From Nitrospina sp. LS_NOB (lineage in GTDB: Bacteria; Nitrospinota; Nitrospinia; Nitrospinales; VA-1): 64,000 nucleotides of DNA. Both the position numbers and the translations under genes were made by a program. Position 1 is the stretch's first letter. Every line of letters starts with the position of its first letter. The notes under the pieces were generated by a model that worked only from the letters and a program-made list of their open reading frames with translations, had not been told where the DNA came from and searched no databases. Of this stretch, positions 19,066-35,629 are shown piece after piece. The stretch is from NCBI GenBank assembly GCA_001542995.1, contig LFLA01000024.1, forward strand, positions 68,499 to 132,498. Reading direction: 5' to 3'.

Positions 19066-19092
19066 GGTCCTTTTATGTGTTTTTAAATTTTT

Positions 19093-19305
19093 ATGGAGAA
19101 AAATAAATTGAAAACAGGATATCAGAAAACGGTTCTTGAATCATTCGACACCGAAAATGTTTTTAGTGGTTCTTCAGATTCCACACCTCTGGAATACATT
19201 AACGATCCGATTATTGAAAAACTTTTGATACAGCAGGAAAAGATAAACCGGTTTAAAGATATCTGTAACCCAGGTATTTCTTATGGTTTTTATCATAATG
19301 GGTAA
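19093..19305 (+). CDS. Hypothetical protein
   Basis: 70-aa AT-rich ORF within the cluster. Confidence 0.35.
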   Translation: MEKNKLKTGYQKTVLESFDTENVFSGSSDSTPLEYINDPIIEKLLIQQEKINRFKDICNPGISYGFYHNG

Positions 19306-19368
19306 ACTCCATAGGTGTTTCACTATCCAATTCTCGCTGAGTTCCATTAAAAAAATAACAATTAAATT

Positions 19369-20577
19369 ATGAAATTTATCGACTGGTTCAAAAACATCCA
19401 GAAAAAAGAAAGCGCGGTGACCCGGGCTATGACCTTATGGTTGCCAGCAGGGCAGGGGGTCTCCAGCAAAACCGATTATGCTTCTTTGGCAAAAGAAGGG
19501 TTCACCCAGAACAGTGTTGTGTTTTCCTGCGTTAAAGAGATTGCTTCGGCAAGCGCTGGCATTCCCTGGGTTTTATTCAGGCAATTGCCCGATGGGGGAC
19601 GACGGGAGGTGTCTCAGCATCCTCTGCTTGATTTGATTGCCCGGCCTAATCCGCTCCAGGGAAAATATGAACTGATTGAATCCATGGTCTGCCATCTCTA
19701 TCTTTCCGGAAATGCTTATATGGAGTCTGTAGGTCCGCCCAGTGGTGGTCCTTCCGGTTTACCTAAAGAACTTTATGTTCTCAGGCCCGATCGGATGAAA
19801 GTCATTCCCGATGTGGTTCATTATGTCGGTGGTTATGAGTATACGGTATCCGGACAGAAGGTGGAGTTCCCTCGTGAGCAAATATTACATTTGAAACTGT
19901 TTAACCCTCTTGATGACTGGTATGGTTTGTCTCCGGTTCAGGTTGCGGCTTTGGCCATTGACAAACTCAACTCAGGCGATAAATGGAATGCATCGCTGTT
20001 GCAGAACGCGGCGGTTCCTTCCGGAGCATTAACCTGCAAGCAACGCCTGACGGACGATCAGTTTGACCGCTTGAAAACCGAAATGCGACGGCAGATTCAG
20101 GGAGTCAACAATGCCCGCGAACCTCTGCTTCTCGAACAGGATCTTGAATGGAAAGAGTTGGGGATTTCCCCCAAAGATATGGATTGGATTGAAGGTCTGA
20201 AAATGAGCGCTCTCCAGGTGGCGCAGGTGTTCAATGTTCCTCCGGAGTTGGTGGGGCTGGGTCCGGCCACGTACCAGAACCGCAAGGAAGCGCGCAAGGC
20301 TTTATATACCGAAGTGGTTTGCCCATTTCTCAACCGGCTTCGCGATGGTTTTAATAATTGGCTGGTTCCGCGATTCGGCGAAAATCTGATTTTGGACTAC
20401 GACAAGGACGGTATTGAGGCTTTGTCGGAAGACCAGGAAGCGTTGTGGAACCGGGTTAATCAAAGCGAATTTTTAACGGTAAACGAAAAACGCCGCATGG
20501 TTGGATTCGATGATGTGGCCGACGGGGATAAGATTTTGCTTAACCACCGTCCAAATTCAAGGAGTGAATCATCATGA
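19369..20577 (+). CDS. Phage portal protein, HK97 family (RcGTA-like)
   Basis: HPLLDLIARPNP, LSGNAY, ELYVLRPDRM, DDWYGLSP, PSGAL and FNVPPEL motifs. Confidence 0.95.
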   Translation: MKFIDWFKNIQKKESAVTRAMTLWLPAGQGVSSKTDYASLAKEGFTQNSVVFSCVKEIASASAGIPWVLFRQLPDGGRREVSQHPLLDLIARPNPLQGKYELIESMVCHLYLSGNAYMESVGPPSGGPSGLPKELYVLRPDRMKVIPDVVHYVGGYEYTVSGQKVEFPREQILHLKLFNPLDDWYGLSPVQVAALAIDKLNSGDKWNASLLQNAAVPSGALTCKQRLTDDQFDRLKTEMRRQIQGVNNAREPLLLEQDLEWKELGISPKDMDWIEGLKMSALQVAQVFNVPPELVGLGPATYQNRKEARKALYTEVVCPFLNRLRDGFNNWLVPRFGENLILDYDKDGIEALSEDQEALWNRVNQSEFLTVNEKRRMVGFDDVADGDKILLNHRPNSRSESS

Positions 20578-21266
20578 AAGAAATTAAATCGTTTCCTTTT
20601 AAGCTGGATGCGCTGAATGATGCCGGAGAGTTTTCCGGCTATGCTTCCACTTTTGGGTCTGTCGACCTGGGCGGGGATGTGGTGGAAAAGGGAGCTTATA
20701 AAAAAACCCTGAAGGAAAGCCAGGGGCGCATCCCTATTCTTGACCATCATGACCCCACTCGGCAGATTGGCTGGAACGTTCAGGCGCATGAAGACGAGCG
20801 TGGTTTGTTCGTGCGCGGACTGCTTGATCTCAATGTCAGTGCGGCACGGGAACGCCATAGCCTCATGAAAATGGCACAGAGCATCGGCGGACGCACAGGG
20901 CTTTCTATCGGATTTAGAACGATCAAGGAGGAACCGGACCGGAAGCGCCCCGACATTCGCCGGTTGAAGGAAATCCAGCTCATGGAATACAGCGTTGTCA
21001 CGTTCCCCATGAACCCGCAGGCGGGAGTGCTCAGCGTAAAAGCGAAAGAACAATTGATTGGCCAGTTTTTGCAAAATGCCGTGGGGTTGGACAAACGACA
21101 AACCCAACTGGCAATCATTAATTTTAAATCACTCCTTTCTAAAAGCAACGAGCCGGGTTTTGCCCACTCGGGTAGATTGAAAATGGGAGCCGATATCCCG
21201 GACTGGGAGCCGTTACGGCTGTCCCTGTGCCGACTTTTAAGCTCTGTAAAGGGAGCCCTGAACTAA
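20574..21266 (+). CDS. HK97-family prohead protease
   Basis: FSGYASTFG..DLGGDVVEKGAY, HHD..IG, GLSIGF and EYSVVTFPMNP motifs. Confidence 0.95.
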   Translation: MKEIKSFPFKLDALNDAGEFSGYASTFGSVDLGGDVVEKGAYKKTLKESQGRIPILDHHDPTRQIGWNVQAHEDERGLFVRGLLDLNVSAARERHSLMKMAQSIGGRTGLSIGFRTIKEEPDRKRPDIRRLKEIQLMEYSVVTFPMNPQAGVLSVKAKEQLIGQFLQNAVGLDKRQTQLAIINFKSLLSKSNEPGFAHSGRLKMGADIPDWEPLRLSLCRLLSSVKGALN

Positions 21267-21369
21267 CCTCGAATTTCTAATTTTAGACCTTCCTCGGGCC
21301 AATTTATACCGTGTTTGTTCCCTATTATATAAGGTCTTCTCGTAAGGGGCCGGGTGAGGGTTTTTTTTA

Positions 21370-22581
21370 TTGAAGGAGATTGAAATGGAAGAGATTAAAC
21401 AGCTTGTTGAGGAACTCAATCAGGCATTTATAGAACATAAGGTAAAAAACGATCAGCGCTTGAACGAAATCCAGAAAAAGGGTTATGCCGATCCTGTTCT
21501 TGAGGAGCAGGTTGATCGTGTGGCGAAAGAGATCCAAAAGCTGGCTGAGGTTAAGGAACGACTTGAGCGGGTAGAAACCAAGCTAGAGCGCCCGATTCTG
21601 GGCAAGCACGAAAGCGATAAGACGGAGCCCTTTTCCAGCGAAAGAAAAGAAGCCGTGATTCATTACCTCAGAAAGGGAGAAGGGTTTTTGACCCCACAGG
21701 AAATCAAACTTCTCGCCACCGACAGCGATCCGGATGGCGGGTATTGGATGACTTCGGAAATATCTCAACAGGCCATTCAAAAGGTTTATGAAACTTCACC
21801 CATGCGCAATATTGCTACGGTTGAGACCATCTCAACCGATGCTCTGGAAATTCCTGAAGACCTTAACGAAGCTGATAGTGGATGGGCTTCGGAACGGTCT
21901 GCCCGCCCTGAAACCAGTACTCCGCAGATTGGCGTACGGAGAATTCCTGTGCATGAGCTTTACGCAATGCCGAAAGCGACACAGACCTTACTGGATGATT
22001 CACGTATTGATGTCGAGTCCTGGTTGTCGGTAAAAATTGCCGACAAGATGGTGCGCATCGAAAACTCCGCCTTCATCAATGGGGATGGTGTCGGAAAACC
22101 GCGCGGCATATTGACTTATTTGCCAGGCACTACCAATCCCGGCCAGGTGCAACAGGTCAATTCCGGAAATGCCAGCTCTTTGACCGCTGATGGCCTGCGC
22201 TCGTTATTTTACACTTTGAAGGGTTCATATATTCCCAATGCCCGGTGGTTGATGTCACGAAGTGCTATTGAAGAAGTTTCCAAGCTGAAAGACTCTGCCG
22301 GTTCTTACATCTGGCAACCGGGGTTTCAGGAGGGAGAACCGCAAACCTTGCTGGGTCATCCGATTGAGCGCATGGAAGATATGCCGCAAGTGGCAGCTAA
22401 TTCCATGTCTGTAGCGTTTGGGGATTTCAGGCAGGCTTATACCATTGTTGACCGGATGGGATTGAGGGTTCTTCGCGATCCTTTCAGCTCCAAACCTTTC
22501 GTGCTGTTTTATACCACGAAGCGCACTGGTGGTGATGTGGCTAACTTTGAAGCCTTCGCCATCCAGAAAACAGCCGCATAA
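21370..22581 (+). CDS. Major capsid protein, HK97 fold (RcGTA g5-like)
   Basis: DGGYW, HELYAMPKATQTLLDDS, AFINGDGVGKPRGIL, AFGDFRQAYTIVDR and LRDPFSSKPFVLFYTTKRTGG motifs. Confidence 0.97.
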   Translation: MKEIEMEEIKQLVEELNQAFIEHKVKNDQRLNEIQKKGYADPVLEEQVDRVAKEIQKLAEVKERLERVETKLERPILGKHESDKTEPFSSERKEAVIHYLRKGEGFLTPQEIKLLATDSDPDGGYWMTSEISQQAIQKVYETSPMRNIATVETISTDALEIPEDLNEADSGWASERSARPETSTPQIGVRRIPVHELYAMPKATQTLLDDSRIDVESWLSVKIADKMVRIENSAFINGDGVGKPRGILTYLPGTTNPGQVQQVNSGNASSLTADGLRSLFYTLKGSYIPNARWLMSRSAIEEVSKLKDSAGSYIWQPGFQEGEPQTLLGHPIERMEDMPQVAANSMSVAFGDFRQAYTIVDRMGLRVLRDPFSSKPFVLFYTTKRTGGDVANFEAFAIQKTAA

Positions 22582-22600
22582 AAAAACCTAACCCCCTCAA

Positions 22601-22705
22601 TACCCCTTCGGGGCACGAAGATTTAGGAAAAATATCACGTCGACCTTGCCAGGGGGAAGTTTTTAAACTCCTCCCCTGTCAAGGGGAGGCGGGGAGGGGT
22701 TAAAA
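22601..22705. repeat. Composite host REP (family A plus CCTCCCC/GGGGAGG hairpin) inside the phage cluster
   Basis: TACCCCTTCGGGGCACGAAG...AATATCACG; the GGGGGAAG..TTTT..AAACTCCTCCC segment also occurs near 4630. Confidence 0.75.
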
Positions 22706-22729
22706 ATAAAACTCTTTTCGGAGAAAATA

Positions 22730-23107
22730 ATGAAAGATCTCAAAAACCATATAGACGCGGTCAACTCCATTAATCCGGATGATTACACCGCAACTATTAA
22801 CGGACTGGGCATTGACCTTCAGGGCTTCGAAGGTTCTGCCGTTGTTTTCAGTGTCGGCACGGTTACGGACGGAACCCATACCCCGAAGATTGAAGAGTCG
22901 GATGATAATTCTAACTGGATGGATGTAGCCTCGATCGACCAGGAGGGACTGTTGTCCGATTTAGCTTCTGACACCAATCAACGTGTAGGATATAAAGGCA
23001 CGAAGCGTTATCTACGTGCGGTATTGACCGTTTCCGGCGCTACCATTGGGGCCCAGGCCGCCAGTCTGGTGCTGAGAGGAATCCCGCATCGGGCACCTGT
23101 CAACTAA
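22730..23107 (+). CDS. Phage protein following the capsid gene (possible decoration/cement protein)
   Basis: beta-rich 125-aa ORF with GIDL..G...ESDD..W..VGYKG.KRYLR pattern. Confidence 0.65.
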   Translation: MKDLKNHIDAVNSINPDDYTATINGLGIDLQGFEGSAVVFSVGTVTDGTHTPKIEESDDNSNWMDVASIDQEGLLSDLASDTNQRVGYKGTKRYLRAVLTVSGATIGAQAASLVLRGIPHRAPVN

Positions 23108-23111
23108 TCAA

Positions 23112-23155
23112 TCCTTTTCCCTTTTTTAATTTGAGGGGAAGGGGAATTTTTTTGG
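23112..23155 (+). terminator. Possible intrinsic terminator
   Basis: Imperfect TCCTTTTCCC/GGGGAAGGGGA hairpin followed by T7. Confidence 0.35.
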
Positions 23156-23164
23156 ACATTATTT

Positions 23165-23374
23165 ATGAAAATTAAAATGCTCAAAACCCGGCAAGGTTCT
23201 CCGGATGGAATCGCCGTCAACACTTATATCAGTGGTGAAATGGTGGATGTTCCGGATGAGTTAGCGCGTGTTTTCATTCAACAACGCTGGGCGCGCAAGG
23301 TCACCAAACCGACAACGAAAGACCGGGGCAAGGCCCCTGAAAACAAAAACACTGTAAAAAAACGAAAACCTTAA
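23165..23374 (+). CDS. Small phage head-region protein
   Basis: 69 aa, MKIKMLK...SPDG...Y..GE.VDVPDELA..FI..WA. Confidence 0.6.
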   Translation: MKIKMLKTRQGSPDGIAVNTYISGEMVDVPDELARVFIQQRWARKVTKPTTKDRGKAPENKNTVKKRKP

Positions 23375-23386
23375 CAGAAAAATAAA

Positions 23387-23989
23387 ATGGCTTTAATAAT
23401 AAGTGTTCCGCCTGTTTCGGAGCCGGTTTCTCTGGCCGAGGCTAAAATCTATTTGCGTATTACGGATAGCGATGATGACGCGTTGATCAATTCTCTGGTT
23501 ACCGCTATCCGGCAAAAGGCCGAAACCTGGACCCGACGTTTGTTCATCACCCAGACTTGGACCTTGTGGCTGGATTGGGCGCCGGAAGGCACGATGCTTC
23601 CCATCCCGCTCTCACCTTTGCAGTTGGTAGTTGATATTAAATCCTATGATTCCGCCAATACGGTCAGCACTTTCGATGCCAGTAAATATCTGGTAGACGG
23701 CGTGTCCACTCCCGGTCGAGTTGGCTTAAATGATGGACAGACTTGGCCTAATGCTCTAAGAGCAATGAATGCGCTGGAAATAAAATTCGTGGCCGGTTTC
23801 GGGGATGCCTCCAAAGTTCCGGAAACGATCAAACAGGGCATTCTGCAATGGGTCAAACTGTTGTTCGCCAACAAATCCAAACTGTATGAATCCAATGAAT
23901 CCACTTCTGGACTGCTAGAATTGAACCGCGTACCCATTCCACCCGCTGTGATGGTTCTGTGGGAACCCTATCGAGTTTTCAAAATATAA
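23387..23989 (+). CDS. Head-tail connector/adaptor (gp6/phiE125 gp8-like)
   Basis: PP.SEPVSLAEAKIYLRI..DDDALI..L...AE..T.R.FITQTW; GFG..VP..IKQGIL. Confidence 0.9.
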   Translation: MALIISVPPVSEPVSLAEAKIYLRITDSDDDALINSLVTAIRQKAETWTRRLFITQTWTLWLDWAPEGTMLPIPLSPLQLVVDIKSYDSANTVSTFDASKYLVDGVSTPGRVGLNDGQTWPNALRAMNALEIKFVAGFGDASKVPETIKQGILQWVKLLFANKSKLYESNESTSGLLELNRVPIPPAVMVLWEPYRVFKI

Positions 23990-23997
23990 TTGATTTG

Positions 23998-24462
23998 ATG
24001 GCTATTTTTCTTCGTTTTGATTCGTTTGAAAAGATAAAGACCTGTTTCCTGCATTTATCACAAGGCGTGAAAGAGGCAACACGTGAGACCGCTCGCACAT
24101 TAATGCTCCGCGCTGGGCATCTGGCAAAGGCAAGGGTCCGATCCACAACCCGTAAACCCAATATAGGCAAGGGCAATTATTTCCGATCCATTAAATCTGG
24201 TTTTCTGGATGGGGGCGGGTCTTTCACCTCAAAGCTGGAAAGCAACTCGCCCGTGGCGGGAATCATTGAGTTTGGCAGCCGCCCGCATATTATTCGACCC
24301 AAGGGAAATAAACTTTTGTTCTGGCCGGGGGCGAAACATCCCGTAAAAGAAGTCAAACACCCTGGCACTCCAGCATTCCGGGTGCTGGGTGAGGCAACCG
24401 AAGAGGCGGCTGAAGACATCGGAAAGACTTTTGAGTCCGCCCTCAAGCGGAAATTTAATTAA
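23998..24462 (+). CDS. HK97 gp10-like tail-completion protein
   Basis: IEFGSRPHIIRPK..K.L....KEVKHPGT motif. Confidence 0.75.
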   Translation: MAIFLRFDSFEKIKTCFLHLSQGVKEATRETARTLMLRAGHLAKARVRSTTRKPNIGKGNYFRSIKSGFLDGGGSFTSKLESNSPVAGIIEFGSRPHIIRPKGNKLLFWPGAKHPVKEVKHPGTPAFRVLGEATEEAAEDIGKTFESALKRKFN

Positions 24463-24493
24463 GAGAGACCTGAATAATTAAAGGAGAGATTCG

Positions 24494-24970
24494 GTGACCG
24501 ATTATACCGTTCTTGGCAATGCCATTAAAACCACCCTGGAAAACGACGCGTGGACAGGCAATTCCGCCAATGTGAAAACCCTTGAAACTCATAAACGTGG
24601 ATTTTCCATTCAGGATGAGAAGGACGCGCGGTTTTTTGCCCCGTCCGACCTGCCCGCCATCGCGGTGGTGCCTAACGCAGAGGCCAAACAACAGGAGCCC
24701 GGAGCTACTAACGAGATTCGTGAAACTGTTCCGGCGCAGGTGATCGCCGTGACCCGGCAGAGGGACGCCCAATTCGGGTTGGCGGCTCATCATACCCTGG
24801 TGGCGAATATAGAAAGAGTGTTGGATAAACAAAAAAGTTCCAATGACGATCTGGGCATCGGAGGTTTTGTCCGGGAGGTCAGCACCACCGAAGAACAGTT
24901 TAAAAAGGGAGAATACTATTATTTTATTTCCATCACCACAGCCCAAATTGAATTGACCGTAAACTTTTAA
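24494..24970 (+). CDS. Putative tail terminator
   Basis: Position before the tail tube gene; LPAIAV motif; alpha/beta pattern. Confidence 0.55.
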   Translation: MTDYTVLGNAIKTTLENDAWTGNSANVKTLETHKRGFSIQDEKDARFFAPSDLPAIAVVPNAEAKQQEPGATNEIRETVPAQVIAVTRQRDAQFGLAAHHTLVANIERVLDKQKSSNDDLGIGGFVREVSTTEEQFKKGEYYYFISITTAQIELTVNF

Positions 24971-25056
24971 CGATTCATCAATAATTCAAGTTATTAGAAA
25001 CTCCATTAATTAATCATAACATCAATAGCAGGAGCAATAGACTCTGAGGATATTTT

Positions 25057-26100
25057 ATGACGACGAAACGTATCACTACAGGATGGCGTGGATTTTCCAC
25101 TGCCAAAGAAGTTAGCTACGGAACCCCGACAGGAATTTCCACCGCTTTCAATTTTGAAGGCCCCATCACCGATGTGCAACCGAATGAGGTTCAGACGGAT
25201 GAAAACGAGACCACCGGACTCAATGAGCCGTCGATTCAGGAAGTTTTGAACTGGAAACTGGATGGCACCCATCAACAGCGTGCCATGCCACATAACATGG
25301 CTTATTTTCTCGCACTGGTTATGGGAAAAGTAACCACCGACCAGCCGGATGATGTCAACGATCCCACTGTTTATCGGCATTTCATGGAGCGCGACCTGGC
25401 CAATATTACCCTGCCCTCTGTGACCTTGGTGGAATATGACGGAATCGCCAACAAGCGTTTTACCGGATTGTTCGGCAAATCCGTCAAAATCAGCGGGTCG
25501 AGGGGCGACTTTGTCAAACTTGAGGCGCAGTTTGGCGGCATGGGCAAAGAAGAACCCAATGCCGACTCCAAACCCACCGTGATTGGGGAATCTTATTTAA
25601 GATATGGGGACGTCAATTTCAATCGAGGCGGTTCTCTTTCAGGCTCGGTTGCGGGAGGAGATCTTGCGGTTGTTGGTTCGCCGACATCATTCAAAGCAGA
25701 TTTGCTTTCCTTTGACTGGACAATGGATAACCAAGTAAAAACCTTTTACGAAATGGGCGACAGTTCCGGATATGTAACGAGAGCAGAACGCGGCGACCGG
25801 TTCCAGCAAACTTTAAACGCGACTCTGGAAATGCAGGACGATAGCCACAAGTCCGGGCTGGTCAACGGTACCGAATATGTGTTTCACATTCCCGTTACCG
25901 GAGCGGTGATCGCAGGGGGATCCGGTTCGTTCAATTATTCCTGTGATCTTATTTTTCCCAAGGTTGTTTATAAAGAAGCCAAAAAGGATCGGGATGGAGA
26001 AGTGCTGACGGTGAACGCCGAGTTTCAGGTGCTGGAAGACACGACCTACGGGTCGGTGATCGTAAAAGTAATCAATGAGCAAACAGGGTACTTGCTTTGA
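25057..26100 (+). CDS. Major tail tube protein
   Basis: 347 aa; KEVSYGTP N-terminus, beta-rich, immediately before the chaperone genes. Confidence 0.75.
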   Translation: MTTKRITTGWRGFSTAKEVSYGTPTGISTAFNFEGPITDVQPNEVQTDENETTGLNEPSIQEVLNWKLDGTHQQRAMPHNMAYFLALVMGKVTTDQPDDVNDPTVYRHFMERDLANITLPSVTLVEYDGIANKRFTGLFGKSVKISGSRGDFVKLEAQFGGMGKEEPNADSKPTVIGESYLRYGDVNFNRGGSLSGSVAGGDLAVVGSPTSFKADLLSFDWTMDNQVKTFYEMGDSSGYVTRAERGDRFQQTLNATLEMQDDSHKSGLVNGTEYVFHIPVTGAVIAGGSGSFNYSCDLIFPKVVYKEAKKDRDGEVLTVNAEFQVLEDTTYGSVIVKVINEQTGYLL

Positions 26101-26184
26101 TTCAGCATTTACTAATTGTCACCCTGGGTTTATCGAAGGGTACATCCTTCGACAGACTCTGGATGACCCAAAATGGAGGTTTGA

Positions 26185-26574
26185 ATGGCAATCAATATAA
26201 ATCCGGGAGTTATAAAAGTTGAAATTCCTTATTGCGGGGCGACCGTTGTTCTGGTTTTGCGGGATTATACGACCGAAGAGTATTGCCAGTTCCAGAAAAA
26301 CCGGTTTAAGTTTGTTTCTCCCGGCAATGTCGATGACCACTCCTCGCAGGCGCGCATCGAGTTCATCGAAACAATTTTAATGGATATAAAAGTTAAAACC
26401 AAAGAGGGCGAAGAAGAGGTTGTTTTTACCGACCCTGCTACAGGCGAGGAAAAACCTTTGACTCCTTCGATTCCAAACTGGAAAAAGTATGTCCAGGCCT
26501 CATTCAAATGCGCCGCGGCCATGGTGTTTGAGGGAACCTCCGCCAACTTGGAACACGCCACGCTAAAAAACTGA
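26185..26574 (+). CDS. Tail assembly chaperone (gpG-like)
   Basis: Lies between the tube and tape-measure genes; ends in the slippery heptamer A-AAA-AAC just before TGA. Confidence 0.75.
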   Translation: MAININPGVIKVEIPYCGATVVLVLRDYTTEEYCQFQKNRFKFVSPGNVDDHSSQARIEFIETILMDIKVKTKEGEEEVVFTDPATGEEKPLTPSIPNWKKYVQASFKCAAAMVFEGTSANLEHATLKN

Positions 26575-26894
26575 TCACCTACTTCCAGGACGATGTGCCG
26601 GGACTGGAAGTAGAGTACCAGAATTTTCTAAAACGGGTTCACGAGGAAACGGATGACCCGCAATGGAATATCGAAAATCACCCGGCACGAAAAATTCTCA
26701 ACCGCTACTCTGAAGGGTTCGGCAAATGGGTGGGGTATCTGGAAAACCTTCTGTTGTTAAAAAAGGGTGGCTATCCTTTTGAGAAGAATGATCTGGGTAT
26801 TACTGAATGGAAAGCCCTGGCCCTGCTGGAACTCCTCGGCGGAGGGCCAATGAACAACCGGTCAGCGACCGGTGACGATAAATTGTACAAATAG
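26565..26894 (+). CDS. gpGT-like extension reached by -1 frameshift
   Basis: The -1 frame from 26565 reads K-K-L-I-T-Y-F-Q-D-D straight into the ORF 26595-26894. Confidence 0.7.
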   Translation, partial: KKLITYFQDDVPGLEVEYQNFLKRVHEETDDPQWNIENHPARKILNRYSEGFGKWVGYLENLLLLKKGGYPFEKNDLGITEWKALALLELLGGGPMNNRSATGDDKLYK

Positions 26895-27187
26895 ATAGCT
26901 TCCTCCTGATAAGGGGGATTTCAATGGACCCCTCTTTCTTAAAGTACCCGTGCCGGGCACGAGGGCTTTGGAACAATATCACGAGGGGCTGGGGTGATTT
27001 ACCCTCCTCCTTGACGGGCCTCCTCTTTCTCTTTCACCTTAAGGGTGAGAGGGAAGGGGGGATTACCTTCTTATCACTGATTTCTTTTCCGCATTCTTGG
27101 CAGGGGATCAGAGCCATGGCTGTTTCTCCATATTGGTTTACGGGTTTTAGCATAGCTGATTAACAGTTTTAACGAATCTCTTTTTCA

Positions 27188-27300
27188 GGAATTTAATTAT
27201 GGCCAGTCCAGTTAACGTAAGCGCAAAAATAACAGTTGGGTTTGAAGATCAGTTCAGCGGGCAAGCCTGTCAGGCATTTGAAACCTGTGCATGTCTATAG
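27188..27300 (+). pseudogene. Duplicated 5' end of the tape-measure gene (33-codon stub)
   Basis: 27188-27283 closely matches 27661-27756 (MASPVNVSAKITVGFEDQFSG/AQACQAFE), then stops at 27298-27300. Confidence 0.8.
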
Positions 27301-27319
27301 GAAATAGGGGCAGGATGAA

Positions 27320-27541
27320 CTATAAGCCGAATATGCGAGTTCCCACCCAATAAAGTCCTAAGGCGGAAACAAAAGAGATGGATAAAAAGATAATTAATGA
27401 AGATAATACTTTTAGAATCTTTTCTGACCCGGTCATTTCAGAAAAACTTTTTTTTATGCGAATAGGTACGCCGCAATGCGGACAGGTTGATGCCTTGTCG
27501 CTGATTTGTTTGTCACATTCCGGACAGGGGAACAGGGCCAT
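27320..27541 (-). CDS. Double zinc-ribbon membrane protein (moron-like)
   Basis: CPEC...CPHC plus a C-terminal TM helix; AT-rich and antisense to the cluster. Confidence 0.75.
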   Translation of the reverse strand: MALFPCPECDKQISDKASTCPHCGVPIRIKKSFSEMTGSEKILKVLSSLIIFLSISFVSALGLYWVGTRIFGL

Positions 27542-27671
27542 TTGTTAGAACCTTCTTTCAGGTGCGGAAGAGTATTTTAGCGGTAACATTTATTGCTTCT
27601 TTATAAATCAAGTGCAGTTATTCTAACATTAAATTTGCTATAGCAATTTTATTCTTTAAGGGAATTTAAAT

Positions 27672-28790
27672 ATGGCCAGTCCGGTTAATGTAAGTGCAAA
27701 AATAACAGTCGGGTTTGAAGACCAGTTCAGCGCGCAAGCCTGTCAGGCATTTGAAATCGTAAAAAAATGCGCTGAGGACGCCTTTCAAGTAATGGACTCG
27801 TTCCCCAAAGCATTGGCACCCGGTGGTTTTCAGGATGATGTTGAATTATTTTCGCAATCGGTGGAAAAACTCGAGAGTTCCATAAACCGCATGAATGAGA
27901 GCCTGATAAAGTCACAGGAAGAGGCCACCCGGTTTGGTGAGTCTTTGGAAAACCCCAGCAAGTTTGTGGCTGACTTTTGGGAAAGCTTGAAACAAGGGAA
28001 TACTTTTGCGGTCACTACCGCCATAGCTGGCTTGACTGTTGGGTTAGCTGGCTTAGCAACATTAAACGCTCCATTAGCTGGACTTGGTGCGGTTATTTTA
28101 GGTGTAGGTTTAAACGCTGCATTTTTGGCGTCACTTTTGAATGATGTCGAGGAATCACTGAAAGCGTTGGAGGCTCAAAAACTAATTGAACCTAAAATCA
28201 CCGAAGATTCGATCTTTCAACTGGAAAGATTTTCTTCTGCGCTTGAGCCGTTAAGAAATCCGCCGGACTTCCAGCTCAAAGTTGATTTGCTGGATAACGC
28301 CACGGGAAGTGGCGCAAAAATTCGCCAGCAACTGGAAGAAATGTTTAAGTCTCCCATCACCCAGACGATCGTCACCGAACGTGTGGATGCTGTTTTAAAT
28401 TTTTCAAAATCGCCTGGGCGGTCCTCGTCCGATCCATTCAACTCCTTTTTTGATGATGGATTGCCGGAATTTCTGACATCGAGCCCGGACCTGACTGGGT
28501 TTAACAAGTCGGTGGGATTCTCCCCGGCTAAACCCGCTCTTCCCAGTTTTGCCAGCGGCATCGACCGGGTTCCACGGGACATGCCGGCCCTTATCCATAA
28601 GGATGAAGCGGTTCTCCCCAAAACCCAGGCAGAAGATTTTCGCCGTGGCGGCTCCAGCGGGATGAGCATTGAAAACCTTAATTTCAGCTTCAATGTCGCC
28701 AACGGCGCCAAGCTCGACCGGGAGGAGTTTCGCAATATGGCTTTTATGATGCGTGATGAACTCAAACGCCTCGACCGCCGAATCGATTAG
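27672..28790 (+). CDS. Short tape measure-like protein
   Basis: Helical N-half with a hydrophobic A/G/L-rich stretch; C-terminal FASGIDRVPRDMPALIHKDEAVLP motif typical of tape-measure C-termini. Confidence 0.8.
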   Translation: MASPVNVSAKITVGFEDQFSAQACQAFEIVKKCAEDAFQVMDSFPKALAPGGFQDDVELFSQSVEKLESSINRMNESLIKSQEEATRFGESLENPSKFVADFWESLKQGNTFAVTTAIAGLTVGLAGLATLNAPLAGLGAVILGVGLNAAFLASLLNDVEESLKALEAQKLIEPKITEDSIFQLERFSSALEPLRNPPDFQLKVDLLDNATGSGAKIRQQLEEMFKSPITQTIVTERVDAVLNFSKSPGRSSSDPFNSFFDDGLPEFLTSSPDLTGFNKSVGFSPAKPALPSFASGIDRVPRDMPALIHKDEAVLPKTQAEDFRRGGSSGMSIENLNFSFNVANGAKLDREEFRNMAFMMRDELKRLDRRID

Positions 28791-28998
28791 CCGCTAGGCT
28801 GGGTTGCCATCCTGTGCGTCATCGCGAGCGACTGTAAGAAGCGCGGCGATCCAGGTTTGTGATATTCCCTCATTAGCCTTCATGCCCTGCAAGGGTATTT
28901 TTGGATTGCGCTGTCGCCTTTGGCTCCTCGCAATGACGACCGGGCCATGGTTTTTTATTGGAAGAAGTTTTTTTATATAGTGATTTGGAGAATGTTTT

Positions 28999-29379
28999 AT
29001 GAGTTTTGGTTTTTATTATCCGACAAAGTCCGCACCGACGGCGCAATGGGTGCCTGTTACACAGCCGGAGTACCCGGCGGGGGAGGTCCTGGATTATCCT
29101 GAACAGATCAATTCGGTCACTGCCGGTGGCACGCTTTATGTGCAGGAGAAGGGTGGCCAGCGCCAGACCTTTCAGTTTAATTTTTCCCGAATCAACCAAG
29201 CTGACCGAGACAGCGCCCAAACCTTTTTTGATACCGTTAAAAAATCATTCAAGACCTTTGAATTGGAGGACCAGAATGCAACCCTGCACACCGTACGGTG
29301 GATGAACGGATTAAATTTTCAGCTGGTCCTCTTTGGCAAATATTCCGGGACTATTGATCTCAGGAAAGAACCGGCGTAG
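28999..29379 (+). CDS. Distal tail (Dit-like) protein
   Basis: Follows the tape measure; TAGG..YVQ......F.F...FFDTV...F pattern. Confidence 0.6.
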   Translation: MSFGFYYPTKSAPTAQWVPVTQPEYPAGEVLDYPEQINSVTAGGTLYVQEKGGQRQTFQFNFSRINQADRDSAQTFFDTVKKSFKTFELEDQNATLHTVRWMNGLNFQLVLFGKYSGTIDLRKEPA

Positions 29380-29537
29380 CTGCCGGGGGCAAATTGCAAT
29401 AACTCTTTCAGGCGAGCAAAAAGTTGTCTGGGCCTGAGAAATCTTTGCCCAATCACCACCGGGCGTTGCCTGGCCAGCGTCACGCTGGTCACGCCGAGTG
29501 GGTGGAGGTTTTCCGTAAATAAATAAAGGAGATAAAT

Positions 29538-29855
29538 ATGATTGATTGGAGCCAGTGCCGGCCTGAGGATTTCAACCTTGTGGTGGATGGCGAGGAAATT
29601 CAGCAGGTGGGGCAGACACAATTGTTCCCGATCCGGGTCTTTTATAAAGGGGATACTTTTGTTTTCCGGAAATCGGTTCCCCTTCGAGCTGAATTTTATG
29701 CCCAGTTGAGAGAGAGGGAGGATTGGAAAGAACGGTTGATGGAAATTCTGAAAAATCGGGTGCGGGGGGAGATTGATGAAAGGATTCACTCAAGCCAGAT
29801 AGGCATTGACGACAAACTGGAGTTGATGGCTATGAGCAAGGACCCGATTGGATGA
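29538..29855 (+). CDS. Hypothetical protein
   Basis: 105-aa ORF with an AGGAG RBS; no family recognised. Confidence 0.65.
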   Translation: MIDWSQCRPEDFNLVVDGEEIQQVGQTQLFPIRVFYKGDTFVFRKSVPLRAEFYAQLREREDWKERLMEILKNRVRGEIDERIHSSQIGIDDKLELMAMSKDPIG

Positions 29856-29935
29856 AAAGGCAACCCCCTAAATCCCCCTTGTCAGTGGGACTTGCAGCCA
29901 AACTTTTTTATTAACATTTACTTTTCTGACTCGTC

Positions 29936-32827
29936 ATGCGAACCGATTTTACATCCGGATTTAACACTTCGAGAAATAGCAAGACCAATGCGCCGGTCAA
30001 TTTATTACAAATTGACTGGCCTGCCATGAATGGTTTGCCGGCGTTAACGTTAAGGCTGACCGATCGGGAAGGGATCACGATCAACTCTCTTTATTGGTAT
30101 CCGCTGGTGAATGATATGGGAAACCTTGACCGACTGGTATCTCCCGATCAAACCGATAGCAATTCTTACCCCAACCTCACGGTGAACGTGGTGAATGCGC
30201 CGGTGGACTTGTTCAGTCCGGTGGCCCGATTCTCAAACTTGTTTCGCCATCGTCCCCCTGAATCGGCTGTGGTGACTCTTTACCAGTGGTTTGCGGGTGA
30301 CGGGCTGACCGATGCGGATCTTGGCGTCCTTTTTATTGCTCGCATTGGAGACCCGATCCAATATGACGAGGCGATTTGTATTTTTGACCTGGTGGATATA
30401 TCTCAGGGCTATGGTGCCACAGTGATCGGCAATACTCTTACCCTTGCTGATTACCCTAATGCTCCCGAACAATCGGTTGGAAAAATCAGGCCCATCGTTA
30501 TTGGAAATGTCGATGAAGCTCCCGGGACTTTGGTACGGAAATCACAACAAACCCAATTAACTTCGGTGGCGATTCCTGGTGGGACGTTGCTGGATGTTTC
30601 TTCCACCGCTAATTTTCCGGCGTCCGGGACGGTTATCGTCAATGATGATGAAATCAGTTTCACCAGTTTGAACTCCACTCAGTTTTTGGGCTGTTCCGGG
30701 ATCAACGAATTTCATTATAGCGGTGACGCGGTTCTCGAGAAGGTGACAGACCATCGTTATTTGTTCAGCGATCCCGATTATCCTATTAAGGGTATTACTA
30801 ATATCAGGGTTGGGGGCCACCTGGCCGATTCCGGAGAATTTTTGGTAGATGTTGCTGAAGGGGAAGTGGTATTTTCTTCCAAGCCTAAAAAATCTGATTC
30901 CATCGATACCAAATTCTTACAGGCGCAGAACGATGTAGTGGGCGCGGGGAATACTGCTATCAATCCCACCAATGCCAACATTCCCAATAGTCCTACCACT
31001 TACGCTAAAATTAACCAGAGCACCAATGTTCTATCGTTACGGCAAACCGATTCCCTGGCTAATATTGGAACCATTGGTAAAGTACTTTTGCGGGTCGAGC
31101 ATTTTGTTGAGGAGAAACTTCCTAATGACAGTATGACGGCCCATGTTACCGGTGTGGGCCAAGTCGGCGTCTTATCTGCCCCGGCTGTGGACGATGTGGT
31201 GGTCTCAAGCGGGACGACGGATATCACTCATACGCATTTGGATTCGTTTGGGTTTCCCATCAGCGATCCACAACATCAGCATACCGAAGCCCTTCCTCCA
31301 AAGATAACGCAAAGTGCTCTATCCGGGATCGGCGGGCTGACGATCAGCTTAGGGAGCGGACAACAACATATTATTACTTTTCCCGATCCGGGTCCGGGCA
31401 CTTGGGCAACGGGGGAGTATGGAATTGGATTTGAATGGACCGGTACGATTTCTGGTCCGAGCACGGTGGATGTCTATGCGAAAAACAGTGGCGGAAGTCC
31501 TTCTGATGACTACAGAGTGTGGAGACGGCAAGGAACGACGCAGACCTACACCACAGGCGGCAACATCAATACGGACACGAACTCCATTCGTCTCACTCAC
31601 AACGCGACACTTATTACTTTTAAGGTGACTTTTGCCACGCGGGTCGTGACCATGAATGCACCGTTAAGCGTGAGTACGCAAGGGACCAATGTTTCCACCT
31701 CAAAAACGGGTTCCTTAACTCAACATTCTTCCAGCCCGGCGATTAATTCCACGGCTGAAAAAGCCACTCGCAGTGTTGTTGATTTTTTTGATATCACCAG
31801 CCATGTGAACGGGGACTGGAACTGGTTCACCAACCGGGAATCCCAAATTCAATACAATGGTTCCAGTGATGGCCGCACGGCCTTTATCGTTCACCTTGCT
31901 TATGAAATTGAGTATGCCCGGAGGCGAATCCAGTTCACCGATGAGGTCAGCGCTGATATCCAGGGTGTGAAGGATGATTCCAGTGGAACCCTGACCGGGA
32001 TTGCCGACTCCCTTGTTGAAAGACCGGATCATGTTTACAAATGGTCAATTCTCAAAGCGTTAAATTTTGGCAGTTCGGTCCTGGACTCTGCGTCTCTGGA
32101 TCAGGCCGGAGGTTTGTTTTCCAGTTATTATCTGGCCGGGATAATAGTCAATAAGGTTTCAGCCCGCGAACTCTGGAATCAATGGGGCAAGGAAAGCCGT
32201 TCTTTTTTTTATTGGGATTTGGGATTGGCAAAAATTCTGTTTCGTCCATTAAACCTTGTGAACACCAGCACCATCGCGGATAAAATCATTTTGGACAATA
32301 TGGTTTTGTTGGATTCTAAAAACCAGGTTCGGTTTAAATCCACGCGTAATCCTATTGAGGATGTGGTGAATAAAATCGATCTGAGATATCGCAAAAACTG
32401 GTCCGGTGAGGGCTATAAATCGGTGGAAAGCGCCAATGATGTTGAATCGATCAATCAGTTTGGGCAAAAGGAAAAGCCGGCTGATTTTGAGTTCAATTGG
32501 ATTCGGACCGAGGTCCTTGCGGCGGATCTGGCTTTATTTTATTTGCAGGAACGCGGGTTTCCCCGGGATGTTTATGAGATTGAATTGCTGCTGGATAATA
32601 TGGAGATTGAGCGGGGCGATATTCTTGAAGTCAACCCTCCCACGCATGAATTGAAAAATGTCAAAGTCATGGTTTTAGGTGCCGGTAGGTCTATTGGCTC
32701 GGGAATCGCCCAACGTATGGATACGGTTCCTGTAATTGCCCGGCAAATGCGCGGACTTGTCGGCAATGCGGGATTTGGGCTGCAGGGTTTTGGGGACTCG
32801 GGTTTTGGCGGCGCGGAAATAAATTAA
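29936..32827 (+). CDS. Baseplate hub/tail-tip protein with internal variable region
   Basis: 963 aa; hub-like N-part (RPIVIGNV), T/S/G-rich internal region, C-terminal INQFG..EF.WIR...A..LA...L tail motif. Confidence 0.75.
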   Translation: MRTDFTSGFNTSRNSKTNAPVNLLQIDWPAMNGLPALTLRLTDREGITINSLYWYPLVNDMGNLDRLVSPDQTDSNSYPNLTVNVVNAPVDLFSPVARFSNLFRHRPPESAVVTLYQWFAGDGLTDADLGVLFIARIGDPIQYDEAICIFDLVDISQGYGATVIGNTLTLADYPNAPEQSVGKIRPIVIGNVDEAPGTLVRKSQQTQLTSVAIPGGTLLDVSSTANFPASGTVIVNDDEISFTSLNSTQFLGCSGINEFHYSGDAVLEKVTDHRYLFSDPDYPIKGITNIRVGGHLADSGEFLVDVAEGEVVFSSKPKKSDSIDTKFLQAQNDVVGAGNTAINPTNANIPNSPTTYAKINQSTNVLSLRQTDSLANIGTIGKVLLRVEHFVEEKLPNDSMTAHVTGVGQVGVLSAPAVDDVVVSSGTTDITHTHLDSFGFPISDPQHQHTEALPPKITQSALSGIGGLTISLGSGQQHIITFPDPGPGTWATGEYGIGFEWTGTISGPSTVDVYAKNSGGSPSDDYRVWRRQGTTQTYTTGGNINTDTNSIRLTHNATLITFKVTFATRVVTMNAPLSVSTQGTNVSTSKTGSLTQHSSSPAINSTAEKATRSVVDFFDITSHVNGDWNWFTNRESQIQYNGSSDGRTAFIVHLAYEIEYARRRIQFTDEVSADIQGVKDDSSGTLTGIADSLVERPDHVYKWSILKALNFGSSVLDSASLDQAGGLFSSYYLAGIIVNKVSARELWNQWGKESRSFFYWDLGLAKILFRPLNLVNTSTIADKIILDNMVLLDSKNQVRFKSTRNPIEDVVNKIDLRYRKNWSGEGYKSVESANDVESINQFGQKEKPADFEFNWIRTEVLAADLALFYLQERGFPRDVYEIELLLDNMEIERGDILEVNPPTHELKNVKVMVLGAGRSIGSGIAQRMDTVPVIARQMRGLVGNAGFGLQGFGDSGFGGAEIN

Positions 32828-32874
32828 AGAATTTTGATTCATACCGGCCGGGGGTTCGGCCTTGGATTTAAATT

Positions 32875-33351
32875 TTGGAAAGGAGTTTTATGGCTAATAC
32901 TTTTACAATGAACCTGAATCTTGCAATTCCCTCCGCCGGAGATTTAAATTGGGAAAATGAGTATTCCGACTTTTCCGAGGCGGTGGATGATCTTGGGAAT
33001 TTGTTTTGTTTTACCGTTCCCGTTCTCGATTCGGCTGCCAATGGAATGGTATTTTTTGATGGATTTATTCCAGCGGAAAATATTACGGTAAAGGCTATAG
33101 GCCTTTTTGCGCAAATCGCTCCCACCGGCCAGGATATGAAGGTCGATGTTTTGAAAAATGGAACGGCCCAGACCAACCCCGGAACCTTAACGGACGGAAG
33201 CCAGTTTGGGAAAACGGTTTTAGGTTCTTCAATTGGGTTTTTGGTGTCCGACCGGCTGGGTTTAAAATTTACTCAAGTCGGATCGGTTGTCGCAGGGGAT
33301 AAGATTGTGGTGACCATTTATTACCAGAAAGAAGCAATACCCGGCCCTTAA
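32875..33351 (+). CDS. Putative tail-associated structural protein
   Basis: 158-aa beta-rich last gene of the cluster (APTGQD..VDVLKNG..DRLG). Confidence 0.6.
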   Translation: MERSFMANTFTMNLNLAIPSAGDLNWENEYSDFSEAVDDLGNLFCFTVPVLDSAANGMVFFDGFIPAENITVKAIGLFAQIAPTGQDMKVDVLKNGTAQTNPGTLTDGSQFGKTVLGSSIGFLVSDRLGLKFTQVGSVVAGDKIVVTIYYQKEAIPGP

Positions 33352-33433: not shown

Positions 33434-34324
33434 TTAAAGCTCTTTCCAGGCACCAATAACGCGACCGACAATGGGGTCGGGATGTTCGTTGAGGTTGATG
33501 ATTTGTACCTGAGAATTGGGGTTGATAGGCCTGAGAATTAACAGGTTTTTTTGGGATTCCACATATTTTGCCGTTAAGCCCTCATCATAGAAGATGGCAA
33601 AGATGCGGTTTTTCAATAATTTTTTGTCGTCCCGGTCAATGACCACAATGTCGCCCGAGTGCAACATGGGCTCCATGGAATCCCCGTCTACCCGACTGGC
33701 CACCAGATTTTTCTTTTTGCCTGCCGCCCGTATATGAAGGAGAACATAATCCTCAATATTATTTTCCTGGATGATGGGTTGTCCGGCGGCGATGGAAGAG
33801 GCCGTGAGAGGAATGGAGATATAGTCTTCCCCTTTAATGGCTGGAGCTTCTGCGATGCTCCTGGGTTGATAAATTTTCAATTCCGGCACCTGCACTGGAA
33901 ACGTGTCCCCCTCCTTCAAAAACTCGTTCGGCGGAATATTCATTTTTTCTGCCAGGTCGTTGAGCAAATCAGGGGAGATGGACCAGTTTCCATTTTCGTA
34001 GTTTTGTAAAACCTGCGGAAAGAGAGAAACGCGCTTGCCCATTTCTTCAAGGGACCAGCCATTCTTTTTTCTCAAACGTTTGAGCTTTTTACCAATTCTC
34101 TGGTTAAGGGGAGAGGAAGAAGTGATGCCCGTAATCAGCCATCCCAGATCCAGCCTGAAATGCCTGGCGATTTTTTCCAGGGTTATAGAATCAGGAGGTC
34201 CATTGTTACGCCTATGGCTCTTCTTGAATTTTTCATAATTCAAGCCAACCTTTCGACAAAAATCGGCAAGGTTGTTGTTCCCCGGCAAAGACCCTATTCT
34301 TTCCCAAACCCGTGTTTTTGGCAT
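33434..34324 (-). CDS. CI/LexA-like repressor: two HTH domains plus S24 peptidase
   Basis: LDLGWLITG (CI-like HTH); second XRE HTH (LKRLRKKNGWSLEEMG..YENG); VDGDSMEP Ser and AKYV Lys dyad. Confidence 0.9.
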   Translation of the reverse strand: MPKTRVWERIGSLPGNNNLADFCRKVGLNYEKFKKSHRRNNGPPDSITLEKIARHFRLDLGWLITGITSSSPLNQRIGKKLKRLRKKNGWSLEEMGKRVSLFPQVLQNYENGNWSISPDLLNDLAEKMNIPPNEFLKEGDTFPVQVPELKIYQPRSIAEAPAIKGEDYISIPLTASSIAAGQPIIQENNIEDYVLLHIRAAGKKKNLVASRVDGDSMEPMLHSGDIVVIDRDDKKLLKNRIFAIFYDEGLTAKYVESQKNLLILRPINPNSQVQIINLNEHPDPIVGRVIGAWKEL

Positions 34325-34342
34325 GGCGGAGTGAAAAAGCTC

Positions 34343-34397
34343 TTGACATAAGAGGACAAATGTCCTATATTAAAAATAAGAAAAGGGAATAATGTCC
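34343..34397 (+). promoter_or_regulatory. Sigma70 promoter with overlapping palindromic operator, divergent from the repressor
   Basis: TTGACA (34343-48), 17-nt spacer, TATATT (34366-71); palindrome AGGACA-AA-TGTCCT at 34353-34366; 11/14 copy GGGAATAATGTCCT at 34384-34397. Confidence 0.7.
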
Positions 34398-34446
34398 TTA
34401 TCCCGAATTCGCTGTTTTTTTGTAATTTGCTCTTCGGCGAAACAGT

Positions 34447-34483
34447 CTCGCTTTTCTGCTTTATCGACTTACGCAAAGGTCTC
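34447..34483. repeat. Single end of the GAGACCTTTGCATAA MITE family
   Basis: ...TCGACTTACGCAAAGGTCTC matches the ends at 56232, 56536 and 63252. Confidence 0.6.
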
Positions 34484-34857
34484 TTTATTGGCAGTATTGC
34501 CTGGCTCTAATTCTGCTTTTCCACTGATTATACCATTTTGATCAGGTATTTTGAGAAGAGGGGAAATGAATAGATAAAATAATTCACTATTTATCAATTA
34601 ATTATAGCAACTACAAAATGGTTATTTTAATGTGCAAAATAGCCGAAACGAATGGCCCCCGGCTTTCCTGCGATATGGATTTGCCGGACAAAACTCAAAG
34701 GGTCAAGCTGGGGACTTGGGAATTATAACAATTCCTATCCGGACAATGCAATCGGTAAACGAAAATTATCCGGAAAATGATGGGAATGTGTTTGGTTGGG
34801 GGTTGGTTGAGATTTTTTCAGGTAGCGGGTCACTATTATTTATGAGGGGGGGGTACT

Positions 34858-35292
34858 GTGGAAAAGATACGGATAACACGTTCTTCTGCGGGTCATAACG
34901 CATCTGCCAGGAAAAGACTCAAACTTTGTTTGCCGGTTTCTTATGTATTGGAAAGCGGAGAAACTCTTCAAAGGGGTTGCGGTAGAAAGGGATTGTACGA
35001 AACCGATGTGGGTTGGCATTGCCTTTATTGTGGAAATTATTTATACCGTCGGGAACCTTCGCTTAAGGCACTGTGGTTTCATTTCAGGGTAGGACGTGAA
35101 TATTGGCGGACGATGTTCTCCCGGGATAAAGTTTTTATTAACGGTGTTCCCGTGACGGGTTTGCCAGATGGTTTGCCGCGCAGTCTTTTTGCCGATTTGC
35201 TCGAGCCCGATCCGCCTCCCTGGTTTTCCTATTTTATTTTTTATGATGGTCCTCAATTTCTAAAATACTTGGAGAATCACGAGCATGTCTGA
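34858..35292 (+). CDS. Hypothetical protein with C..HCxxC (possible zinc ribbon)
   Basis: 144-aa ORF overlapping the next gene; GC...WHCLYCG motif. Confidence 0.6.
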   Translation: MEKIRITRSSAGHNASARKRLKLCLPVSYVLESGETLQRGCGRKGLYETDVGWHCLYCGNYLYRREPSLKALWFHFRVGREYWRTMFSRDKVFINGVPVTGLPDGLPRSLFADLLEPDPPPWFSYFIFYDGPQFLKYLENHEHV

Positions 35293-35629
35293 ACCCTGCA
35301 AAACAAATGAAGGTATAGATTATGGATCGGAGAATGACTATCACTTGAGGTTTTTTCCTCCTGATGAGTTGGAAATTATCCGCAATGCCCAGAATTTCGG
35401 GGTTGAATATCAGGACTACCGTCCGCACTCAGAGTTTTCCTATTTAAAGGAAGGTTTCTTGAACCTTGAAGATATGGGATTGACGGACAGGCAGTTGATG
35501 GCTGTCTCATTGGTGTTTTATGGGAGGCTTAAGAAAAAACTCGCTGCGCGTATCATGAAGATCAGCAGCCAGGCCCTCTCCGACCACCTCAAGGCCGGCC
35601 TCAAAAAAATGACCTTTGTTTTGGGGTAA
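35285..35629 (+). CDS. Sigma-70 region-4-like HTH regulator
   Basis: LTDRQLMAVSLVFY...KKLAARIMKISSQALSDHLKAGLKKM resembles sigma70_r4 / LuxR-type HTH. Confidence 0.7.
   Translation: MSEPCKTNEGIDYGSENDYHLRFFPPDELEIIRNAQNFGVEYQDYRPHSEFSYLKEGFLNLEDMGLTDRQLMAVSLVFYGRLKKKLAARIMKISSQALSDHLKAGLKKMTFVLG

Follow-up and report, generated by a model that had tools for sequence, protein, structure and literature searches.

In the PrtR/PrtN system of Pseudomonas aeruginosa, which controls R- and F-type pyocins, RecA-triggered cleavage of an S24 CI-like repressor frees a positive regulator that turns on a cluster of phage-derived particle and lysis genes (PMC8609362). In the AlpR/AlpA system of the same species, which parallels the action of lambda Q, a LexA-like self-cleaving repressor (AlpR) controls a small regulator that passes RNA polymerase over an intrinsic terminator between the promoter and the lysis genes (PMC7969949, PMC9371919). 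In the Caulobacter gene transfer agent (GTA), to which GafA of RcGTA offers a parallel, the repressor RogA silences the adjacent activator pair GafY-GafZ, and the pair activates a head-tail GTA, partly by antitermination at internal terminators (PMC11150451, PMC9632790). In this study, we describe a candidate switch of this kind in a stretch of 64,000 nucleotides, referred to here as the window, from a chromosome segment of Nitrospina sp. LS_NOB, phylum Nitrospinota (contig LFLA01000024.1, positions 68,499 to 132,498). The switch comprises a repressor gene, rep (product rep296), and two divergent genes, znf and sig (products znf144 and sig114), and it lies directly 3' of a complete HK97-type head-tail module and 5' of the host genes etfB and etfA. 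With the odds slightly in its favour, rep-znf-sig can be read as the control module of a domesticated head-tail (GTA-like) element that occupies the dnaA-etfB interval in Nitrospinota. Members of this phylum are the dominant nitrite oxidisers of the ocean and are difficult to culture. Our literature search retrieved no paper tying Nitrospina to gene transfer agents, LexA or an SOS-controlled prophage, and found nothing published on phage-derived elements or the DNA-damage response of Nitrospinota.

The logic of such a switch is known from PrtR/PrtN, AlpR/AlpA and RogA/GafYZ, while the regulators found here appear to be unrelated to theirs by any detectable similarity. With PrtR/PrtN the Nitrospinota locus shares this logic and a repressor gene that is divergent from the activator. 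It differs from PrtR/PrtN in having two co-translated regulators instead of one and a cluster with heads as well as tails. Neither znf144 nor sig114 showed a sequence relation to PrtN (no Pfam match), and no repeated site resembling a P-box was found at the locus. The likeness to AlpA and Q lies in a conserved terminator-like hairpin that immediately precedes the cluster's first, lysis-type gene. However, antitermination is our interpretation for Nitrospinota, and by the searches run neither znf144 nor sig114 is a homologue of AlpA or Q. A two-protein activator and terminators inside the cluster, as we propose for Nitrospinota, recall RogA/GafYZ, but the repressor here is an SOS-type S24 protein and not RogA, the regulators are located at the tail end of the cluster, and the host belongs to another phylum. 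The initial annotation had drawn a parallel with GafA, which holds as a functional analogy and not as shown homology; no match suggested any homology of znf144 or sig114 to GafYZ or GafA, whose profiles were not among the libraries searched. Finally, the locus resembles the lambdoid CI/Cro switch in that repressor gene and strong promoter are divergently oriented, the operators overlap this promoter, and the repressor has an S24 domain and matches PHROG 4. In contrast to CI/Cro, it has neither Cro nor any other early helix-turn-helix (HTH) gene, it has two operators rather than three, there are two HTH domains in its repressor (with weak evidence for the first), and its first rightward genes encode putative late regulators.

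Repressor, promoter and operators

Pfam searches reveal that rep296 has a Peptidase_S24 domain at residues 173-290 (PF00717; 62.3 bits against a cut-off of 23.3, 4.3e-17) and an HTH_3 domain at residues 81-135 (42.9 bits against a cut-off of 23, 4.9e-11), and its best whole-protein profile match is PHROG 4, 'transcriptional repressor' (2.3e-36, residues 5-295). The initial annotation had described a double-HTH S24 repressor; S24 and HTH_3 stand above their cut-offs, while the further HTH in residues 1-72 gives only a weak XRE-type signal (HTH_26 at an E-value of 0.16, phrog_3037 at 7e-5, and the family profile against the XRE regulator 4ich at an E-value of 0.015). The LexA equivalog TIGR00498 aligns only with the S24 part (residues 171-295) and reaches 39 bits against a cut-off of 110.95. 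Because this cut-off is missed and the DNA-binding domains are of the XRE type rather than the LexA winged-helix type, rep296 is not LexA proper; its profile matches mark it as a typical phage CI-type S24 repressor. The predicted cleavage motif is IAAGQP, with Ala180-Gly181 as the cleavage site, and the predicted catalytic dyad consists of Ser216 in GDSMEP and Lys253 in LTAKY. Across 23 repressor orthologues the catalytic Ser and Lys are invariant, and Ala-Gly is kept in 22. We consider it probable that rep296 is RecA-inducible. In the repressor of locus L004, Ala-Arg (AAR) replaces Ala-Gly at the predicted self-cleavage site (residue 181), so that this protein may be a non-inducible variant.

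A rightward, P_R-like sigma-70 promoter begins 18 nt from the rep start codon on the opposite strand, with the operator O1 in its spacer and a second operator, O2, 32 nt downstream of O1 (Table 1). The initial annotation had predicted this promoter and a palindrome in its spacer, and both are present, AGGACAAATGTCCT being the sole perfect copy in the window; it had also placed a second, 11/14 copy 31 nt downstream, and that copy exists, only at the spacing of 32 nt just given. One promoter with 11 of 12 consensus matches and one palindrome in 64 kb would, alone, be no more than expected by chance. They nevertheless go beyond chance, because the same geometry is conserved across other loci. All 22 other repressor loci have TTGACA (TTGACG in two) 9-48 nt past the rep start, followed by a 17-nt spacer (16 nt in one); most of them have a -10 element of the NATATT type, and most carry a GACA-N2-4-TGTC palindrome 9-10 nt after the start of the -35 element, with a second site 30-32 nt beyond the first in many. 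Of the two sites, the second is the better palindrome at distant loci, such as GGGACAAAAGTCCC in L020, and in L021 the operator has changed symmetrically in both arms (GAGACTATAGTCTC), as would be expected if a dimer reads the site. The exact core GGACANNTGTCC occurs once in each of 12 loci, only at the switch, and nowhere else in 83 loci, and the core GGACA-NN-TGTCC is found at the switch position only within 884 kb (the window plus the loci). We regard it as very probable that rep296 represses the znf-sig operon through the predicted O1 and O2. Since its start codon lies only 18 nt from the promoter, rep296 most likely autoregulates as well. No conserved -35 or -10 element was found on the minus strand for the repressor's own promoter, and a minus-strand candidate at 34630-34601 is window-specific and lacks conservation.

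The locus scan, which used one genome per species, identified 28 loci that encode sig114 relatives, all of them in Nitrospinota. About 22 of the 28 keep the gene order tail963, g158, rep (minus strand), znf, sig and etfB, where tail963 is the 963-aa distal tail protein of the head-tail module, down to 40% identity of the tail protein, and L084 is a further locus with this same order. The co-occurrence of the regulators with the cluster in other genomes, the absence of which the initial annotation had named among its refuting conditions, is thus found across about 22 Nitrospinota loci. All three genes are under purifying selection similar to that on etfB, with ratios of nonsynonymous to synonymous substitution (dN/dS) of 0.05-0.11 for rep, 0.10-0.17 for znf and 0.05-0.11 for sig. 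In loci L018 and L020-L024 of a deep clade, the repressor-controlled operon opens with a gene for an SMC/AAA_23-like ATPase of 746-916 aa with a coiled coil. This gene begins about 145 nt from the start of rep (147 nt in L020), immediately past the operators, and it overlaps the start of znf, to which it is translationally coupled. Because the ATPase gene follows the operators and overlaps znf, the consensus promoter must drive a single contiguous operon that ends with znf-sig. The ATPase gene is degenerate in L019 and L023, and no remnant of it was detected by tblastn in the leader of the window, whose clade seems to have lost the gene tracelessly, leaving a leader of about 480 nt.

In several lineages, a gene for a single-domain CheY-like response regulator, absent from the window, is located directly downstream of rep on the same strand (L084 8007-8417; L019 6599-7081; L023 6675-7118; L012 9426-9872). 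This response regulator could be a second input to the switch.

The znf144 and sig114 proteins and their leader

Where a lambdoid phage would have Cro, there is no conserved small open reading frame between O2 and znf144 in any clade, and in the window the next genes are znf144 and sig114, whose stop and start overlap by 8 nt (ATGTCTGA). Both the missing Cro and the two coupled genes agree with the initial annotation. In addition to its invariant cysteines, znf144 has a conserved aromatic-basic helix, LWFHFRVGREYWR, and its predicted model, of moderate quality (predicted local distance difference test score, pLDDT, of 61), shows beta strands at residues 22-63 followed by helices. No match to znf144 was found in Pfam, PHROGs, NCBIfam, PDB sequences or PDB folds, and a profile search of 1.84 billion representative proteins returned 24 clusters only.

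The conserved C-terminal half of sig114, LTDRQLMAVSLVFYGG-KKK-AAR-MKISSQAL-DH-KAGLKK, is predicted to be an HTH of the sigma region-4.2 type. For the window protein itself, the match to Pfam Sigma70_r4 is weak (0.035; 14.1 bits against a cut-off of 24.1), but 17 of 23 family members match this domain, the best at 4.3e-5; the region-4-like HTH claimed by the initial annotation is therefore consistent across the family while being weak for each single sequence. The protein also matches PHROG 3512, 'sigma factor' (2.3e-4), and NCBIfam PRK05602, an extracytoplasmic function (ECF) sigma factor (1.6e-4), and the top Foldseek matches of its model (pLDDT 69) are region 4 of ECF sigma factors, at E-values of 0.03-0.5. 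A second family, DUF134 (PF02001), scores 16 bits, below its gathering score of 27; it weakly matches 22 of 23 family members (best 2.2e-4), and some sources annotate homologues as UPF0251. In a collection of 5.8 billion proteins sig114 has 83 relatives, and all named ones are from Nitrospinota. Cultured phages yielded no homologue of znf144 or sig114, and IMG/VR yielded a single related contig, which was reached via its terminase. On these matches, znf144 and sig114 are restricted to Nitrospinota.

We considered whether the two proteins form a split sigma factor, with znf144 as a surrogate for region 2. This was rejected: sig114 has no sigma region-2 match, znf144 gives no Sigma70_r2 signal even at E-values up to 10, and its N-terminal half is predicted to be beta-rich. 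Relatives of sig114 with 185-192 aa were also examined as possible znf-sig fusions and rejected as such; they have a Cys-rich N-terminal extension, yet znf144 is still encoded next to sig114 (L084). Neither protein matched Q, AlpA or any other antiterminator in Pfam, PHROG, NCBIfam, PDB-sequence or Foldseek searches.

The untranslated leader before znf144 contains three copies of the motif ATTATANCA. In the 884 kb, this motif occurs in 41 copies on the plus strand and in one on the minus strand, and 31 copies lie in the rep-to-znf leader (the leaders of L001-L025 and the window). In the ATPase clade it is found 42-57 nt upstream of the ATPase start, and in four loci (L003, L005, L009, L045) it is found 35-57 nt before the start of the tape-measure gene; the remaining copies equal the chance expectation. 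One possibility is that the motif serves a dedicated factor as a -10-type or loading element; positive feedback and a promoter for the tail genes would then result. Rfam has no match in either 34300-34900 or 15000-15600, the latter covering the leader of the particle cluster.

From the switch to the particle genes

No repressor operator, even with two mismatches, and no plus-strand sigma-70 promoter with at least 9 of 12 consensus matches was found in 15038-15515, which precedes the cluster. Without an operator upstream of the cluster, any control of it by the repressor must be indirect. The comparison of 52 metagenome loci retrieved via the terminase reveals a common order in the cluster leader, namely a GCGC-centred inverted repeat, a short pyrimidine-rich linker, a strong hairpin and a C/U-rich tract. 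In single-sequence folds, used because the stems cannot be aligned by sequence, 16 of 16 diverse loci form the hairpin (stem of 7-15 bp, z-scores of -1.9 to -6.3) with stems that are unrelated in sequence between clades. The distance from the hairpin to the start codon in these loci is about 20-55 nt, and the hairpin of the window ends 56 nt before its first gene. Since so short a distance separates hairpin and start, the promoter of the cluster has to be situated 5' of the hairpin, and transcription has to run through it. Behind the 125-aa gene that follows the capsid gene there is another terminator-like hairpin; L017, L026, L055 and L084 have it at the corresponding position, and its stems, too, are unrelated. 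The arrangement matches that of lambda PR'-tR'/Q, AlpA and GafZ, and for this reason we favour antitermination or a related modification of the polymerase. A palindrome of the form CGGA-N4-6-TCCG, present at both the switch and the cluster leader, was rejected as unspecific, with 8 scattered copies in the window against 3.1 expected. The conserved cluster leader is also seen in L019, L027 and L032-L059, with L036 lacking the hairpin.

Our model of the switch is as follows. Dimeric rep296 would bind O1 in the promoter spacer and O2 just past the predicted start site, keeping the rightward znf144-sig114 operon silent. Upon DNA damage, the RecA filament would stimulate rep296 to cleave itself at Ala180-Gly181 through its Ser216/Lys253 dyad. 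Then znf144 and sig114, and in the deep clade the SMC-like ATPase as well, would be made and would act on RNA polymerase, so that the particle cluster 18 kb away, with its genes for lysis, head and tail, is turned on, in the favoured version by antitermination or another polymerase modification that carries transcription past the hairpin before the cluster and the hairpin after the capsid module. We put the probability of this whole model, from the repressor to the regulators to the particle genes after DNA damage, at roughly 55%; for the single step in which znf and sig switch on the particle genes, the chances appear evenly balanced. The initial annotation had proposed an SOS-responsive cascade of this kind. 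Its architecture and co-occurrence are found in the genomes. Anatomy, conservation, synteny and selection are read from sequence; the binding and the RecA-dependent cleavage of the repressor and each step downstream of it, including the activity of the regulators and their action on the particle operon, are inferred. Still more tentatively, and with the odds rather against it, znf144 and sig114 may represent a new two-protein modifier of RNA polymerase, composed of a region-4-like subunit and a zinc-binding partner with an aromatic-basic helix, that after SOS-type cleavage loads onto the polymerase, possibly at ATTATANCA, and takes it past the conserved terminators of a vertically inherited GTA-like cluster at the replication origin. 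If the head-tail cluster is a gene transfer agent or another domesticated particle, the switch module would be its on-switch. It would then add a third independent way to silence a lethal particle cluster and fire it in few cells, beside PrtR/PrtN-AlpR/AlpA and RogA/GafYZ, and would add two protein families without known relatives to the regulators of RNA polymerase. If the reading as a two-protein modifier is true, DNA-damage-induced release of particles would be a phylum-wide trait of the main marine nitrite oxidisers.

Several observations weigh against this model. As noted above, no protein of known function is detectably related to znf144, whose model is only of moderate quality. The switch leader has no motif in common with the sequence that precedes the cluster, no 8- or 9-mer occurring in at least 60% of both sets. 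The leader hairpins in the clade of the window have no clean U-tract, so that they may not terminate transcription. L012 has lost the cluster, rep and znf and has a frameshift in sig, and in L027 a deletion runs from mid-terminase to mid-sig and truncates sig114; because each of these is one contiguous deletion, such loss of the regulators is weak evidence for a functional link. Furthermore, L019 and L023 keep rep, znf and sig intact even though most structural genes are lost, and because of this the module may have another or an additional role. In these two loci, dN/dS is 0.10 for rep and 0.23-0.36 for znf and sig, and dN(znf) and dN(sig) amount to 2.1-3.0 times dN(rep), as compared with 1.0-1.9 times in cluster-bearing pairs. 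This speaks for the model, in suggesting that the constraint on znf and sig is relaxed once the cluster decays; the observation rests on one pair. The natural deletion in L012 (8677-10354) nearly fuses dnaA to etfB, with the last 16 codons of the repressor and the frameshifted sig114 remaining.

The retention of the module in L019 and L023 also bears on a different explanation, in which the module is mainly a host regulator of DNA damage (SOS-like) near an old prophage, with rep296 acting as the LexA of a wider regulon and znf144 and sig114 being SOS effectors or regulators unrelated to particles. Constraint on rep like that on a housekeeping gene, persisting at dN/dS 0.10 in these two loci where structural genes are largely lost, would fit such a role. 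However, the confinement of the exact operator core to the switch in 884 kb, the phylum-wide synteny of the module with the tail genes, the faster evolution of znf and sig at a decayed cluster and their pseudogenisation upon cluster deletion all count against it. Moreover, the best whole-protein match of rep296 is the phage repressor family PHROG 4, and its LexA equivalog score falls far below the cut-off. We therefore consider this explanation unlikely.

It is less likely still that the repressor and promoter work as described while znf144 and sig114 are not particle activators at all and serve instead as an antirepressor or feedback pair that replaces Cro, in immunity or exclusion, or, together with the ATPase, in DNA processing or defence. 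The absence of any cis-motif common to the switch and the region upstream of the cluster, the SMC/AAA_23-like ATPase in the operon of several lineages and the lack of similarity of znf144 to a known transcription factor would all be accommodated by such an early function. Nevertheless, sig114 has a putative region-4-type HTH, a kind of domain commonly found where a protein binds to promoter DNA or RNA polymerase, and the cluster, which has no recognisable sigma-70 promoter and lies behind a terminator-like hairpin, needs a dedicated factor, while no other regulator gene is conserved in the island. That the module is an inert relic, the decaying and at present functionless remains of a dead prophage, is highly improbable. 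Although no integrase, replication or Cro genes are left in the island and a fragment of a miniature inverted-repeat transposable element (MITE) has inserted in the leader, strong purifying selection acts on all three proteins, promoter and operators are preserved phylum-wide, and the catalytic residues are invariant.

Feature coordinates and minor observations

Table 1. Features of the switch and of the associated particle cluster; positions are those of the window unless a locus is named.
Feature	Position	Strand	Description
rep296	33434..34324	-	CI/LexA-type repressor, 296 aa; XRE-HTH + Peptidase_S24
P_R-like sigma-70 promoter (predicted)	34343..34371	+	TTGACA 34343-34348, 17-nt spacer, TATATT 34366-34371; 11/12 consensus matches
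Operator O1 (predicted)	34353..34366		Perfect palindrome AGGACAAATGTCCT; within promoter spacer, touches -10
Operator O2 (predicted)	34385..34398		GGGAATAATGTCCT, 11/14; about +7 to +20 of predicted transcript
Solo MITE end	34446..34483		Multi-copy in metagenome contigs, absent from close relatives
ATTATANCA motif	34527..34730	+	Three copies (34527, 34601, 34722) in untranslated leader; conserved, strand-specific cis-element
znf144	34858..35292	+	Orphan protein, 4 invariant Cys (24, 41, 55, 58); GTG start behind GAGGGGGGGG
sig114	35285..35629	+	114 aa; C-terminal half sigma-70 region-4 / DUF134-like HTH
SMC/AAA_23-like ATPase	L020 7271-9511; L021 6296-9046		Also L018, L022, L024
Cluster leader	15395..15458	+	GCGC-centred inverted repeat 15395-15416 and 14-bp terminator-like hairpin 15427-15458; candidate target
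HK97-type head-tail cluster	15515..33351	+	Terminase, portal, protease, capsid, adaptors, tail; presumed regulated operon
Terminator-like hairpin	23112..23145	+	After 125-aa gene behind capsid gene, then T7; conserved in position

The cluster follows dnaA (13676-15037, minus strand), next to which lie gyrB and gyrA, and the sign of the GC skew flips there. The cluster opens with the holin-like g77 in the clade of the window. Deeper clades (L027 7744-8103; L019, L047-L052, L057, L059, L077) have a gene for a peptidase M15 (endolysin-like) in first position, ahead of g77, whereas the clade of the window has no M15 gene there.

The initial annotation had also recognised a MITE end in the switch leader, and this feature was found again. 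Its 20-mer has 7 copies in the window against 0.01 expected. Because close relatives do not have it, this MITE end is, on the comparison made here, not part of the switch. A terminator-like hairpin at 34436-34452 in the switch leader was likewise rejected as a regulatory element, as it is partly made by this window-specific insertion and is not conserved. More MITE ends are scattered in the window, including those at 48941 and 63233, and two complete copies of about 262 bp lie in tandem at 56232-56493 and 56536-56797; their terminal inverted repeat is that of the solo end.

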